From a virus: a DNA stretch of 64,000 nucleotides. Below are positions 20,244 to 25,175 of this stretch, piece after piece. The notes beneath the pieces are model-generated. The model was given only the letters and a program-made list of their open reading frames with translations, was not told the origin of the DNA and searched no databases. The stretch covers positions 1 to 64,000 of IMG/VR virus record IMGVR_UViG_3300032323_000670, one strand, 5' to 3'. The first letter of the stretch is position 1, and the number at the start of each line of letters is the position of its first letter. Position numbers and translations under genes: made by a program.

Positions 20244-20325
20244 ATGATAAAGATATAAAATTTTTTAGGTAAAGTGCTGATTATTAAAATATTTTTCTTA
20301 ATCTTGTATAAGATATACACATCTT

Positions 20326-21327
20326 ATGAATAAGATAAGCTCTACTGGTAAACTTGCTAAAAAGTATCTTAAGAAGTACCCTAACCTTCCAATCCTCACA
20401 ATTGCTAAACTCATGTACGCTGAAAATGACCTGCACTTTAACAGTGTAGATCACGCGCGTTCACTACTTAAGCGTCATGCGGGACTAGGTGGTAAAGAGA
20501 CTAGAAAGAATGTAGATCCAGAACTACAAAGACCCATAACATATAATTATGCACCATTCAATGATATACCCAAATCATACAAGTCTGGACCTAATGACTT
20601 TACATTACCAGATGATGCTAATCATATTCTTGTTCTTTCTGATATACACTTTCCTTATCATGATGAAGAAGCTCTGGGTGCGGCTATCCAATACGGAATA
20701 CAAGAACAAGTTAATACGGTACTTCTTGACGGTGATATTCTAGACTTCTACCAGTTGTCACGGTTTGACAAGGACCCTTCTAAACCTAAGATGATGGTGG
20801 AACTTGAGCAAGGTAGATGGTTTATGAAAGCATTACGCACAGCATTCCCAAAAGCTAGAATCTATTATAAGATTGGTAACCATGAAGAGCGTCTAGAGAA
20901 GTGGTTAAGAATCAAAGCACCAGAGTGGATTGGGATGGATGAGTTTGAGTTAAAGATGTTACTACGTTTTGGAGAGAATCAGATAGAGCTCATAGATTCA
21001 GATGCTACTATTAAAGCAGGTAACTTAAACATTATACATGGTCACGAGTACTTAGGCGGTGGTACAGTAAACCCAGCTAGGAACTTATACCTAAAAGCAA
21101 AAGCTAGTACTATCTGTGGGCACTTCCATAGAAAGTCAGAGTTTGTTACACGTGACATCAACAACAAGATACAAGGTGCTTGGACAATGGGTTGCTTATG
21201 TGAGCTATACCCCGAGTATATGAAAGGTCACTCAGACTGGGTGCACGGATTTGCAGTAGTTAAAGTAGAGAAGGACGGTTCTTTCTCTGTAGATAATAAG
21301 ATGATTGTTGACGGAGTAGTATCATAA
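20326..21327 (+). CDS. Calcineurin-like metallophosphoesterase with basic N-terminal domain
   Basis: SDIH, GDILD, GNHE, HGHE, GHFH motifs. Confidence 0.9.
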   Translation: MNKISSTGKLAKKYLKKYPNLPILTIAKLMYAENDLHFNSVDHARSLLKRHAGLGGKETRKNVDPELQRPITYNYAPFNDIPKSYKSGPNDFTLPDDANHILVLSDIHFPYHDEEALGAAIQYGIQEQVNTVLLDGDILDFYQLSRFDKDPSKPKMMVELEQGRWFMKALRTAFPKARIYYKIGNHEERLEKWLRIKAPEWIGMDEFELKMLLRFGENQIELIDSDATIKAGNLNIIHGHEYLGGGTVNPARNLYLKAKASTICGHFHRKSEFVTRDINNKIQGAWTMGCLCELYPEYMKGHSDWVHGFAVVKVEKDGSFSVDNKMIVDGVVS

Positions 21328-21329
21328 CT

Positions 21330-21551
21330 ATGGCAACCTATATCAAAGCAGGTACATATCAGGTCCCTCATTCTGATGAACAGATTGAGGCTAACATCTA
21401 TATAGACCCGCGAGTAATACAAGTGCTTGATAGTGAGGAAGAGTTGGTAATAGAACTTACTTATGAGGAACTCCGTGGTATCATGGCTATCATGGCAGCA
21501 GAGCAAGAGAAGACTCACTTCCGTATTCAAGCTCTAGGCAGAAACAACTAG
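21330..21551 (+). CDS. Hypothetical protein
   Basis: 73 aa, 2 nt after the previous stop. Confidence 0.65.
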   Translation: MATYIKAGTYQVPHSDEQIEANIYIDPRVIQVLDSEEELVIELTYEELRGIMAIMAAEQEKTHFRIQALGRNN

Positions 21552-21554
21552 CTT

Positions 21555-22095
21555 GTAACAAATTTAGGGTAAAATTGTTACCACACTAAAGTATGTTTTA
21601 TTAGTCATTAACCCCAGTTTTCCTGGATAATGTATAGTATACCATACTATAATGTGGTTTATAAGAAACAAAAAACCTCATTTTTATACCCTGTAAGGGA
21701 TGTTATCCTGCATGGAGAATATACTCCGTACCCTGAAGGGTATTAGTTAGATGTGGTTTATAACATCTGTCACATATATATGCTAAATTTGTGACGCAAA
21801 TATCTACTATACTTGCGACAAGCATTGTGGAAAATACTCAACAGAATCAGGGTTTTAGTGGAAAATAATCCCCAACCCCCTATGGCTTAGTGGAAAATAT
21901 TTGCCAAACTCCGTAACAAAACATGGACAAACTCGGAAGTTTCCCGAGTTACTGCATGAATTTTTCCAGATTTTACATGCAGATACATATAGTATTACCG
22001 TATCACCCCTTATCTATATGCAGGTACATATAAGAATGTCAAGTTTATTGCGCAAAAAACTGGACATATCTACCTAGGGACAACCTATCCCCAGG
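21555..22095. repeat. Array of about 15 abutting, mostly distinct inverted repeats
   Basis: Examples: GTAACAA/TTGTTAC 21555-81, TATAGTAT/ATACTATA 21633-51, TACCCT/AGGGTA 21729-42, AGATGT/ACATCT 21749-68, GTCACA/TGTGAC 21769-95, AACTCGG/CCGAGTT 21930-50, CTGCATG/CATGCAG 21952-82, ATGTCaAGTTT/AAACTgGACAT 22036-67. Confidence 0.8.
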
Positions 22096-22461
22096 GGCAT
22101 CTAAGAGATTCGCCTACCCCCGGTACTAAGGTTATGTGGGGACACCCCCTATAGATGGCTAACAGGAGGGATGGTGTTTGGGATTTATAATGTAGGAGGG
22201 AGAGTGTGGGGTGTTATATATTACAACCCCGGCAAAACTTTCCAAAGGGGTCACCCCCCTGTTGTTCTGCAAGAGATATCTCTATGTATAGACATGATTG
22301 CAAAAAATATTACTGGTAGAAAAGTTCTTGCTGTGCTTGGATGGGTTAGCCTATGCTGTGACTGTGACTGTGCAGAGACCAAGACTCTATGTATGTGACA
22401 GGAGGGAGCGAGCGAGGCAAGACTATATGTATCAAACTCCTTACTGTTATTAAATATATAT

Positions 22462-22716
22462 ATGAACAATCCATTTACTTGTGAGCTGACACATGAACAG
22501 CAAGTTATGAACAGCGGTGGCAAATGCTTAGGCTGTTCAAGTGACACTGAACCTATTGTTGGCATGGAGCCAATAGACGGTCCAGACGGTACACCTGTTG
22601 CTGTAGCGTATAGCCTTGAGGGCTATGACCGCTATTGTCACGGTTGTGCAAGCTCATTGACGCAAGTCATATATGAGCCACAACCTGTTATCACTGATGA
22701 TGAGCTCCCTTTCTAG
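22462..22716 (+). CDS. Early Zn-ribbon protein with SSB-like acidic tail
   Basis: CLGC...CHGC; C-terminus ITDDELPF; directly after motif copy 1. Confidence 0.75.
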   Translation: MNNPFTCELTHEQQVMNSGGKCLGCSSDTEPIVGMEPIDGPDGTPVAVAYSLEGYDRYCHGCASSLTQVIYEPQPVITDDELPF

Positions 22717-22767
22717 GGGGTTCATCTCTTGTATAGTTAACTCCTTACTTTAATTAATAAATACATT

Positions 22768-22983
22768 ATGAAAACTTCAATTGAAATTATTGATGACATC
22801 ACCATTGAGTTGATGCAGTTAAACCGTGCTCAAGCTGTAGCAAGAGACGAGGACAAGTCTTACTTCCAAGGTATGATAGACGCTTTAAACAATAAGCGTG
22901 ATGACCTAATGCTTGATGTTAGGCATCATTCAAAGAAGATAGCAATCATTCTTGATGCACTAACAAAAGAAGACATTGATTGA
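22768..22983 (+). CDS. Early hypothetical protein
   Basis: Motif copy 2 upstream; terminator AGAGGGGC-TCT-GCCCCTTTT downstream. Confidence 0.8.
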   Translation: MKTSIEIIDDITIELMQLNRAQAVARDEDKSYFQGMIDALNNKRDDLMLDVRHHSKKIAIILDALTKEDID

Positions 22984-23050
22984 TGAGAGGGGCTCTGCCC
23001 CTTTTAAACTCTTTATCATAAACTCCTTACTTTATTTAATAATAAACAAA

Positions 23051-23233
23051 ATGAAAAGACTCGGATTAATTGTGGCTATTATAGCCAACCTTGACTCACT
23101 TGCTTTAGTGATTCTATCAGCATCAATGTCAAATGTATCAGAGGATGGAAGACTCCTCGGGATTATACTTGGTGTATTATGTTGGATTGCTACTGCTTAT
23201 GTAGTTTACTTGAGTGTAAATGAAGAGCGTTAA
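23051..23233 (+). CDS. Early two-TM membrane protein
   Basis: ATG at 23051 after motif copy 3; two hydrophobic segments. Confidence 0.75.
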   Translation: MKRLGLIVAIIANLDSLALVILSASMSNVSEDGRLLGIILGVLCWIATAYVVYLSVNEER

Positions 23234-23369
23234 GACTATCTTGAGGGTACTGAAGAAACGGTACCCTCAAGACTTCATTAGAGACCTTCGGGTTAATGAT
23301 GATGATACTGTGACCTTTAAGGTTGTGAGGAAGGATGATACGTGGAGAGAGATAACAGAGCAGGTCTAA
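23220..23369 (+). CDS. Early 49-aa protein (not in ORF track)
   Basis: MKSVKTILRVLKKRYPQDFIRDLRVNDDDTVTFKVVRKDDTWREITEQV; stop embedded in a terminator hairpin. Confidence 0.6.
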   Translation: MKSVKTILRVLKKRYPQDFIRDLRVNDDDTVTFKVVRKDDTWREITEQV

Positions 23370-23470
23370 AGACCTGTTTTGTTTTTGTGTAGGGGTGATA
23401 GGTTTGTATTTTTTACTATCACCTCTCTTCCTTCACGCACCATAAACTCCTTACTTTCCTTAATGCAAAT

Positions 23471-23641
23471 ATGAAGTACAAAGTCCAATTTGAAATTGTT
23501 GATGTTGGCTTACTGCCAAAGATGCAACAGAAGATAAACACTTGGTTGACAACAGGTCATCTCAAGAAGTTTGAAATGCATGTTCTTGATGAAAGAAAGG
23601 TGCTGTTCAACCTATGTGTTATGAAAAAGGAGGGTGAATAA
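23471..23641 (+). CDS. Early 56-aa protein (not in ORF track)
   Basis: MKYKVQFEIVDVGLLPKMQQKINTWLTTGHLKKFEMHVLDERKVLFNLCVMKKEGE; motif copy 4 upstream, terminator overlapping the stop. Confidence 0.75.
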   Translation: MKYKVQFEIVDVGLLPKMQQKINTWLTTGHLKKFEMHVLDERKVLFNLCVMKKEGE

Positions 23642-23691
23642 CCTCCTTTTTCTTTTATTTAAAACTCCTTACTATAACTAATAATACAACT

Positions 23692-23856
23692 ATGAAGAAA
23701 TCAACTGCTTATGTGTTGCTATACTGTGCAACCATTCTATTTGTGGCATTCTTGTCCTCTTGTCAGACACGTACAGTTGTACGTCCTAATCCTTGTCCAA
23801 GCTTTGACAAGAAGCAGAGCAGAGACATGCCATACTCACACCCAACATGGAGATAG
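23692..23856 (+). CDS. Early small lipoprotein (not in ORF track)
   Basis: MKKSTAYVLLYCATILFVAFLSSC lipobox; motif copy 5 upstream. Confidence 0.75.
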   Translation: MKKSTAYVLLYCATILFVAFLSSCQTRTVVRPNPCPSFDKKQSRDMPYSHPTWR

Positions 23857-23913
23857 GGGGAAACCCTTATTTCCAATCTGTTAAACTCCTTACTATACTT
23901 AATAATAATTCTT

Positions 23914-24237
23914 ATGAAAAACTTATCAGAAATTGCAATCAATGCATTCAAACAAGGGTCAGACAACTATGGTGAAAAACCAACAGGTGAAGTTAGACCA
24001 CTACGCAAGACAGTCTACAGGGAAGGTACAATCTTCTTTGATACAGAGTTCGTAGGTTGGGACCATTATTCTTGTACTGTTATGTTAGTTCAACCTGATG
24101 GACACCCGTGCACTTCAGGTATTGGGTTCTATGTTAAAGACGGTCAGATGCAAGTATGCTCAGGGCATATAGTATTTACACTGCCTGTAACCGATGAAAT
24201 TCAAGCAGAACTTGACAGTGCAGAATTGTCAAACTGA
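23914..24237 (+). CDS. Early hypothetical protein
   Basis: Motif copy 6 upstream; hairpin CATAGCCTCC/GGGGGCTATG downstream. Confidence 0.8.
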   Translation: MKNLSEIAINAFKQGSDNYGEKPTGEVRPLRKTVYREGTIFFDTEFVGWDHYSCTVMLVQPDGHPCTSGIGFYVKDGQMQVCSGHIVFTLPVTDEIQAELDSAELSN

Positions 24238-24310
24238 TAGCATAGCCTCCGTAACAGGGGGCTATGTTCCAATCTAATGAAACTCCTTACTTTAACTAAT
24301 TATAACTCTT

Positions 24311-24586
24311 ATGAAAAATGTATTAGACCAATTGTGTGAGACTGCTGTTGACACACTAAAGATGAAAATTGAATGGCGTAAAACCCGTATTGCTGAATCT
24401 GAACGAGCATTGCTTGCTAAAGTTTTAGGTGATAATAGCGGGGACTATACCATTGAGCAAACTTGTGCAGGACTTGCAACACTGCGTAGTACACTTGCTG
24501 AATTGGAGCGCTTGCTTGCATCATTGCAACCACCTGTTCCTGAACCTGCACCCATCAAGCGTGGCAGACCAAGCAAGAAGAAATAA
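24311..24586 (+). CDS. Early coiled-coil protein with AT-hook-like tail
   Basis: C-terminal KRGRPSKKK; motif copy 7 upstream; TTCG-loop terminator downstream. Confidence 0.8.
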   Translation: MKNVLDQLCETAVDTLKMKIEWRKTRIAESERALLAKVLGDNSGDYTIEQTCAGLATLRSTLAELERLLASLQPPVPEPAPIKRGRPSKKK

Positions 24587-24656
24587 GAGTAGGGCCTTCG
24601 GGCTCACTCTTTTCTCACTCAATGAAACTCCTTACTTTCTTTAACTTAAATCTCTT

Positions 24657-24962
24657 ATGAAACAAGAACAACCAATCTTAGCCTGCGCGGGCAGAGAAGC
24701 AGTATCAATTGATTCTGCATTATTAAAGGAACTGTTAAACAGTTTCACACCTAACACCATTGGTATCAGAGCAAAGGCAGAGCATGTAGCACAAGCCTTA
24801 CATTCGGTAGCATATGGTGAATATGGTGAGCATAGCCTTGAGAAATTCAAGGAGATTATCACCACCGAGTTCTTATCAGTTCAATTGATGGAAGCAAGCA
24901 AACTTGCGAGACAGTCATCTGCGGATGCTGTTGCTGATATGCCATCATTGGATTATATGTAA
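24657..24962 (+). CDS. Early hypothetical protein
   Basis: Motif copy 8 upstream; terminator at about 24980-25014. Confidence 0.8.
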   Translation: MKQEQPILACAGREAVSIDSALLKELLNSFTPNTIGIRAKAEHVAQALHSVAYGEYGEHSLEKFKEIITTEFLSVQLMEASKLARQSSADAVADMPSLDYM

Positions 24963-25043
24963 CTCGTTACTAACACAAAGACAGGGTGCCCCAATGTGGG
25001 TGCTCTGTTCTTTTCCTCTTCCCACCGAGTGAAACTCCTTACT

Positions 25044-25118
25044 ATTCTTAACAAGTATTCTGTGCCACCTCACACATAACCTACACATTGGGGTTGTGCT
25101 ACACGATACTTGTTTTCC
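25044..25118 (+). ncRNA. Candidate small early RNA
   Basis: Motif copy 9 has no ORF behind it; AACAAGTAT/ATACTTGTT closing stem with two inner hairpins, then TT. Confidence 0.45.
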
Positions 25119-25175
25119 TACTCTGTGAAACTCCTTACTTTTTCTAATCATTATTTACTTAAACCCTTAAACGCA

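Follow-up and report, generated by a model that had tools for sequence, protein, structure and literature searches.

A non-coding array of AbiEi-type operator sequences in a crAss-like phage, a candidate decoy for host defence proteins

What could a gene-free stretch crowded with palindromes be doing just ahead of the early genes of a phage? The question is raised by positions 21555–22095 of the 64,000-nt stretch analyzed here (the window), which is the first 64 kb of a 115,976-bp IMG/VR virus record (IMGVR_UViG_3300032323_000670) assembled as a circle. The virus is a crAss-like phage, and its large terminase is ∼25% identical to Crassvirales terminases. A sequence-only reading of this DNA, made without database searches, had proposed that the stretch is a library of binding sites acting as decoys for host DNA-binding proteins or, alternatively, a multi-hairpin sponge RNA. 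By sequence comparison, at least six of the repeats proved to be copies of cis-elements that immediately precede AbiEi-family genes in Bacteroidota chromosomes. In the AbiE abortive-infection/toxin-antitoxin systems, AbiEi serves as the repressor-antitoxin and is a winged-helix protein. We read the region, with a probability of about one half, as a compact array of orphan operator copies that would bind host AbiEi proteins and would probably serve as an anti-defence decoy.

All twelve inverted repeats named in the sequence-only reading were recovered, either exactly in place or displaced by no more than 1–2 nt, together with the three recurring cores that it had pointed out (GTGGAAAATA in three copies, ATGTGGTTTATAA in two and TACCCTG(T)AAGGG in two). 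Counting perfect stems of ≥5 bp with loops of ≤20 nt, we observed 40 inverted repeats in 541 nt versus 18.4±5.4 in 300 dinucleotide shuffles (p ∼0.003), so the density survives the comparison with shuffled sequence. The coverage by inverted repeats was 68%, against 39% in shuffles; the description 'tiled almost gaplessly' was, at this coverage, too strong. The count of 40 is reached by 0.2% of sliding 540-nt windows across the 115,976-nt genome, and an approximately twofold excess was seen in six of seven relatives (z 2.9–4.2), with z 1.6 in the seventh, G005. One stretch of early genes, at 23241–23780, is equally dense or denser (40–43 inverted repeats per 540 nt, z 5.1).

Elements upstream of AbiEi-family genes recur in the phage region

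For an unbiased sample of host operators, we used the PADLOC AbiEi model PDLC02226, which had matches in 63 of 401 Flavobacteriales genomes, and examined the 30 best loci. A 27-nt palindrome GTNNCAAAT-N9-ATTTGNNAC was present in all 30 of them, 15–70 nt before the start codon and mostly within 40 nt of it, and these host sites overlap the promoter −7 box. Independently of the phage, this survey defines four operator classes in Flavobacteriales that track AbiEi clades, with arms GTAAC, GTCGC, GTCAC and GTCCC. The arm class required 6 label changes on the AbiEi tree versus 17.6 in shuffles, and the GTCGC clade was uniform (7/7, support 100/100); since a gene and its upstream site are inherited together, this agreement is a matter of consistency rather than proven co-evolution.

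The phage region contains three palindromes of the same 27-nt length as the host classes, identical to host sites at 22–25 of 27 positions, while 300 random phage 27-mers compared with the same host regions reached at most 19/27. The GTAAC-type palindrome at 21555–21581, GTAACAAAT-N9-AATTGTTAC, belongs to the operator class preceding a single clade of abiEi genes in Flavobacteriales, and is identical at 22/27 positions to sites upstream of abiEi in host loci L322 and L338. The GTCAC-type palindrome at 21769–21795 reaches 25/27 against the abiEi upstream site of L333 and 24/27 against that of L326, with further BLAST matches in hosts L278, L289, L290 and L291; a −7 box of the Bacteroidota type, TAAATTTG, lies in its right half. 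When five host genomes were scanned for the GTCAC palindrome, it turned up only upstream of the abiEi gene, and a control pattern gave no hits. The GTCGC-type palindrome at 21793–21819, which has the form GaCGCAAAT..ACTTGCGAC in this phage and shares 3 nt with the preceding GTCAC unit, is identical at 23/27 positions to abiEi upstream sites in L320, L329 and L332; a site of this type is located 17 nt upstream of abiEi-abiEii in L292.

A BLAST search of 21555–22095 against the 401 Flavobacteriales genomes gave its best matches (up to 97% identity over 32 nt) for an imperfect palindrome at 22036–22067, ATGTCaAGTTT-N10-AAACTgGACAT, which was matched in at least 15 of the genomes. The corresponding host site class, TGTCAAGTTT-N10-AAACTGGACA, is situated upstream of abiEi-abiEii operons, and the phage palindrome combines the half-site variants TGTCAAGTTT and TGTCCAGTTT, each of which is found upstream of such operons. 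In nine of ten loci examined the host site was beside abiEi/abiEii; where abiEi was downstream, the gene started 27–150 nt away. PADLOC identified the genes beside these sites as AbiEi with E-values down to 4e-69 and as AbiEii with E-values down to 2e-139. The palindrome CTGCATG-N17-CATGCAG at 21952–21982 matches a site in L296, L297 and L300 that lies, according to PADLOC and blastp labelling, 36–50 nt upstream of genes for a 193-aa class of AbiEi, with abiEii next. The GTCACA..TGTGAC and CGCAA..TTGCG hairpins gave further BLAST matches upstream of other abiEi genes.

The sixth element is of a different kind. Three direct boxes (T)WGTGGAAAATA with the core GTGGAAAATA occupy 21824–21900 on the plus strand (cores at 21827, 21858 and 21890, spacing 31/32 nt; 42 nt to the third box in most relatives) and match an array that immediately precedes genes for AbiEi-Fic fusions in Bacteroidota; in these hosts the boxes are 31 and then 41 nt apart, and the third one often shares nucleotides with the start codon. 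The pair GTGGAAAATA-N21-GTGGAAAATA was found in 104 viral stretches, with exact spacing in 89 of 105 matches; in bacterial contigs the spacing was exact in 22 of 81 matches, most of these 22 being in Bacteroidota chromosomes. The box array stands directly upstream of a Fic gene in ten bacterial loci; PADLOC scans of three of these Fic proteins returned the defence families SoFic and PDC-S04, with a weak N-terminal match to AbiEi as well in the two proteins of ∼490 aa, and single boxes elsewhere in five of the genomes occurred at chance level.

The Bacteroidota chromosomes at L204, L259, L210, L219, L234, L266 and L274 encode a single chain of ∼490 aa, made up of an AbiEi-like N-terminal part and a SoFic-like Fic domain, and the genes are preceded by three phased boxes, the last one overlapping the start codon. 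This protein with its boxes looks like a self-regulated one-protein toxin or defence module.

Orphan sites and their variation among related viruses

Each of the operator patterns is single-copy in the 116-kb phage genome, and all of them fall within 21555–22066. They agree with AbiEi operators in sequence and geometry and differ from them in location, as no abiEi gene is placed directly downstream. No similarity to AbiEi, AbiEii or Fic coding sequence was detected in the phage or in ∼200 related viral loci; because the phage is without a detectable gene of these kinds, its sites do not serve as operators for such a gene of its own. The remains of a Fic or AbiE gene beneath the region were also considered, and rejected as tblastn found nothing.

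About a dozen related contigs carry the region. The 41-nt block 21555–21595, comprising the GTAAC unit and the next 14 nt, is 92–100% identical in nine relatives compared by BLAST, whereas the rest of the region is ∼72% identical and the adjacent coding DNA 77–87%. Almost no variation is seen in the box array or in the segment AACTCGG..TGCATGAATTTTTCCA either. The left edge forms a sharp boundary, (T)CTCGTAACAAAT, against which different gene cassettes abut in different relatives; in G001–G003 only 0.4–0.6 kb of variable sequence, including a GroES-like gene, lies between the region and the junction of the divergent late and early blocks.

Close relatives gain, lose or flip single whole units, in keeping with the unit-wise turnover that the sequence-only reading had suggested looking for. 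We counted 74 distinct viral loci with the box pair, of which 30 have other operator types in varying combinations, among them GTCCC, a type absent from this phage. In at least four hairpins, some relatives have the loop in reverse complement between unchanged arms. Such flips were seen at 21749–21768, 21769–21795, 21795–21817 and 22036–22067, along with partial arm-to-arm exchanges; the loop of the GTCGC unit is reverse-complemented in G002, G003 and G005, and the 22036–22067 palindrome is flipped in L004. The flips suggest frequent inversion or template switching at short palindromes.

Two relatives, G003 and L002, carry a 188-aa ORF (open reading frame) inserted within the region (in G003 at L094:14023-14589, in the homologue of window positions 21595–21640) with another copy of the TCTCGTAACAAA palindrome in front of it. 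With GIY-YIG motifs in its N-terminal part and an XRE-type helix-turn-helix-like segment in its C-terminal part, the product is presumably, by motif reading, a free-standing homing endonuclease. In L092, L093, L094, L095 and L002 a 96-aa gene, which by its sequence pattern we take to resemble GroES, is divergent from the region, 46–250 nt to its left. As a candidate regulator adjacent to the region neither gene qualifies: the 96-aa neighbour is GroES-like by pattern and not of the helix-turn-helix type, and the insert with the helix-turn-helix segment looks like a GIY-YIG homing endonuclease.

Elements without a host counterpart and the genomic surroundings

The remaining hairpins were searched for in one bacterial order, Flavobacteriales (∼400 genomes). 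The stretch 21581–21768 has no convincing match there; it contains a long stem CCACACTAAAGTATG/CATACTATAATGTGG around a variable interior, the pairs AATGTGGTTT/AAACCTCATT and TACCCT..AGGGTA, and AGATGT[GGTTTATA]ACATCT, one of the hairpins whose loop is reverse-complemented in some relatives. At 21904–21950, CAAACTC(C/G)G occurs twice in direct orientation at a distance of 23 nt, accompanied by the perfect palindrome AACTCGG-N7-CCGAGTT, and both features are strongly conserved in phage relatives; the host genomes gave no AbiE link for this segment, with matches either within a conserved 1005-aa ORF or at one locus of 23-nt tandem repeats beside higBA. In that single case (L306:1453-1540, Flavobacteriales), at least four tandem 23-nt repeats GCCAAACTCGGAAGT(A/G)AAA next to a higB-higA pair resemble the phage CAAACTC(C/G)G repeats, which are likewise 23 nt apart, at 21904–21941. 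The GATAC/GTATC palindrome had no host counterpart in the genomes searched.

Beyond the 541 nt first described, a GC-rich block extends over 22072–22270 (46% GC versus 36%); the palindrome GGGG(G)TACCCCC and conserved G4 and C4-5 tracts (GGGGACACCCCC, GGGGTCACCCCCC) are part of it. Relatives retain the block; no covariation was found in it, and no host matches outside ORFs. Host searches with 21582–21768, 21896–21956 and 22068–22275 returned only low-complexity or within-ORF matches; with scoring limited to the top two candidates in each genome, weak host sites may have been missed. The hairpins left unassigned may be bound by proteins outside the sample or may have another function.

The whole non-coding region, as delimited by the ORF list, motif positions and the alignment of relatives, runs from the stop of a rightward 73-aa ORF (at 21551) to the first AACTCCTTACT, i.e. 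over 21552–22434. No conserved ORF is present, in line with the sequence-only reading, the only frames being one of 40 aa on the minus strand and one of 58 aa with a TTG start, neither of them conserved; the gene-free stretch is, however, longer than the ∼540 nt that this reading gave. The alignment of the region with relatives is indel-rich. Scans of the window with Rfam and for tRNA genes found no family and no tRNA in the region, and BLAST of the region against GenBank phages found no match.

The region is located just ahead of the early cassettes, as had been stated: the first cassette motif is at 22435, where eleven small early cassettes begin, with AACTCCTTACT exact in ten and carrying a single mismatch in one. 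Over 22435–25140 the cassettes have AAACTCCTTACT, in ten exact copies and one copy with a single mismatch. The early motif of G003 (L094) is AAAGTCCTTAAT, in ten copies, different from AAACTCCTTACT and related to it; no such exact early repeat was seen in other close relatives. These differences suggest fast co-evolution of the early promoter and the polymerase that reads it.

On the other side, leftward structural genes start from 20243, and the rightward metallophosphoesterase gene (20326–21327) precedes the 73-aa ORF. This pair (20256–21551) behaves like a mobile cassette; in G001–G003 it is found ∼9 kb away, inverted, between the homologues of window positions ∼29.5 kb and ∼31 kb. The metallophosphoesterase has a weak PHROG match to 'DNA transfer protein' (phrog_1745). 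A 123-nt end overlap of the contig lies inside a 539-aa ORF, and the assembly ends are therefore arbitrary.

Decoy, promoter, origin or trigger

Autorepression of the abiE operon, through binding of AbiEi to inverted repeats in the promoter, is established experimentally (PMC7319586). AbiEi also neutralizes AbiEii; according to a recent preprint it binds this toxin and induces its inactivating auto-phosphorylation (bioRxiv 10.64898/2026.01.19.700257). How phages activate AbiE is not established (PMC7319586; bioRxiv 10.64898/2026.01.19.700257). In phi14:2, a crAss-like phage, host RNA polymerase is used for middle and late genes (bioRxiv 10.1101/2020.03.07.982082). The known AbiEi operators, S. 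agalactiae PabiEi IR1-IR2 and M. tuberculosis Prv2827c IR1-IR4 (PMC7319586), share with the phage sites their palindromic form and a length of 23–27 bp; the phage copies, in contrast, are orphan and concatenate several specificities, and the Flavobacteriales sites are putative operators.

On infection, the array would bind AbiEi-type proteins of whichever specificity the host carries, and the binding would grow as phage DNA replicates. The most likely benefit would be anti-defence by titration, possibly in two ways: the abiE operon would be de-repressed, with antitoxin still being made by host RNA polymerase, or AbiEi-AbiEii complexes and AbiEi-Fic fusions would be sequestered on phage DNA. 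The stronger proposal, that the region is an evolvable library of operator DNA, multi-specific and able to soak up the AbiEi of several AbiE and AbiEi-Fic systems, disarming or pre-empting them, we hold tentatively, as a serious possibility short of an expectation. The differences in units from one relative to another agree with a library kept in step with local host defences.

Gene-less nucleic acid decoys have precedents. Pseudo-ToxI repeats of phage PhiTE are said to counter ToxIN, and RNA anti-CRISPRs are reportedly built from solitary CRISPR repeat units. The phage region would share with them that it is a gene-less phage copy of a host defence locus's own repeated element, which would sequester the protein of that defence; they act as RNA on an effector, whereas the phage array would act as double-stranded DNA, with several specificities, on a repressor-antitoxin. 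The incA iterons of P1, which titrate RepA, are likewise clustered gene-less binding sites soaking up a DNA-binding protein; sites of this type titrate the element's own protein for copy-number control and not host defence proteins. A full-text literature search returned no account of phages countering toxin-antitoxin systems with operator decoys.

Several considerations weigh against a decoy role. The whole case is built from sequence comparison, and the presence of matching AbiE systems in the host of this phage is an assumption. The sign of the effect is uncertain because titration of an antitoxin could release the toxin and harm the phage. The phage sites depart from the perfect host consensus (GaCGC in the GTCGC unit; the spacer of the GTAAC unit), and two ∼490-aa Fic proteins match AbiEi at the N-terminus only weakly (E 1e-5 to 8e-4). 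In the genomes searched, no host counterpart turned up for about half of the hairpins, for the most conserved palindrome, AACTCGG, or for the GC-rich block; the idea of a library of host-repressor sites gained host matches for six elements and not for about half of the palindromes originally listed, and its decoy part is a proposal. Finally, promoter activity could be the selected property, because the palindromes also contain −7 promoter boxes.

This last point leads to an alternative that we consider unlikely, in which the palindromes were co-opted as promoters for host RNA polymerase driving a non-coding early transcript, with host AbiEi acting as a modulator only. All AbiEi operators overlap a −7 box of the Bacteroidota type, and in the GTCAC unit this box (TAAATTTG) is a perfect TAnnTTTG; in G000 three of three 27-mers are oriented toward the early genes, and a terminator-like hairpin is present at 22246–22260. 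In phi14:2 very abundant early RNAs, persisting late, come from long intergenic regions that start the rightward block (bioRxiv 10.1101/2020.03.07.982082). These long non-coding RNAs, at the g004-g005 and g005-g006 junctions, resemble our case in arising from a long gene-free region rich in inverted repeats (z 3.4 in phi14:2) at the start of the rightward early/replication block; there is, though, no sequence similarity to the region studied here, nor covariation support in the latter. Against promoters speak the varying orientation of the units, with loops flipped in relatives, and the lack of a conserved −33 element; a promoter role also leaves six different adjacent AbiEi specificities unexplained, and the RNA results that follow weigh against the proposed transcript as well. 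A scan for sigma-70 promoters and terminators was at chance level. A structured RNA, and with it the multi-hairpin sponge of the sequence-only reading, found no support: RNAalifold detected compensatory changes in 0/43 pairs, and its covariation term was positive (penalizing) in each of the two blocks; folding is equally good on the two strands (z −3.6 for plus, −4.0 for minus); stem mismatches on the plus strand show no G.U excess (20 A.C versus 9 G.T); and there is no Rfam match. To an origin, packaging site or terminus, with the boxes as iterons, the palindromes as sites for phage replication or packaging proteins and the resemblance to AbiE secondary, we assign a similarly low chance. The three phased direct repeats (31/32 nt, conserved in relatives) with an inverted similar box do have the arrangement of iterons; in G001–G003 the region directly abuts the divergent late/early junction, where cumulative GC skew is minimal; an origin and terminal repeats were proposed at the equivalent place in crAssphage (PMC10983915), and T5 has a comparable untranslated region of repeats and palindromes (bioRxiv 10.1101/866236). 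Yet transcription direction confounds the GC skew; an AT-rich unwinding element is lacking, as AT peaks at 0.80 over 40 nt and the AT content of the region equals the genome mean; the units are individually dispensable in relatives, and no initiator or other DNA-binding gene was detected adjoining the region, its neighbours being interchangeable cassettes (metallophosphoesterase, GroES-like, small membrane protein). A single consensus DnaA box (TTWTNCACA), whose first bases vary among relatives, is present in the region, with 16 in the genome. Boxes with up to two mismatches are enriched (11 versus 4.2 on average), but conservation centres on GTGGAAAATAATC, which is not a DnaA box, and an origin of the DnaA-box type was rejected; a classical replication origin is thus poorly supported. 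The T5 injection stop signal (Repeat Region 3) is situated in the long terminal repeat and has eight paired DnaA boxes (bioRxiv 10.1101/866236); the phage region, by comparison, has its one consensus box and no such pairs, and matches AbiEi operators. As to genome ends, the contig ends are arbitrary and their junction, being within an ORF, is uninformative; the crAss001 record has no end annotation.

The same sequence matches that suggest a decoy could also be read in the opposite sense, as a trigger: phage sites kept for some other essential reason would titrate AbiEi and free the toxin, so that AbiE detects the phage. We find this quite improbable. Inverted repeats in autoregulatory promoters bound by AbiEi are described in the unrelated S. 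agalactiae and M. tuberculosis (PMC7319586), and the host sites can therefore be accounted for without any phage; the clustering of six specificities in a single region, modular and dispensable, is more in line with the phage having acquired them; and selection should remove units that do harm, whereas the GTAAC unit hardly varies. Still more remote is neutral debris, that is, functionless fragments of host abiE promoters acquired by illegitimate recombination. The locus is indeed a rearrangement hotspot, with a translocated metallophosphoesterase cassette, a homing endonuclease in two relatives and flipped loops; nevertheless, arms are conserved while flanks diverge (92–100% in the 41-nt block versus ∼72% in the rest of the region and 77–87% in adjacent coding DNA), these elements are found again in no fewer than 74 distinct viral loci, and no trace of coding sequence accompanies the phage sites.

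If the array does act as an AbiEi decoy, sites in DNA would join the proteins, RNAs and small-molecule sponges of the known anti-defence repertoire, and the anti-defence agent would be made of double-stranded DNA sites, neither protein nor RNA. A conserved phage element built from AbiE operators offers a testable hypothesis on how AbiE is triggered and how phages escape it. As a rule for reading genomes, palindrome-rich 'empty' phage regions should be compared with the upstream regions of host defence genes; matched operator specificities would provide a sequence-based route linking uncultured phages to their hosts.

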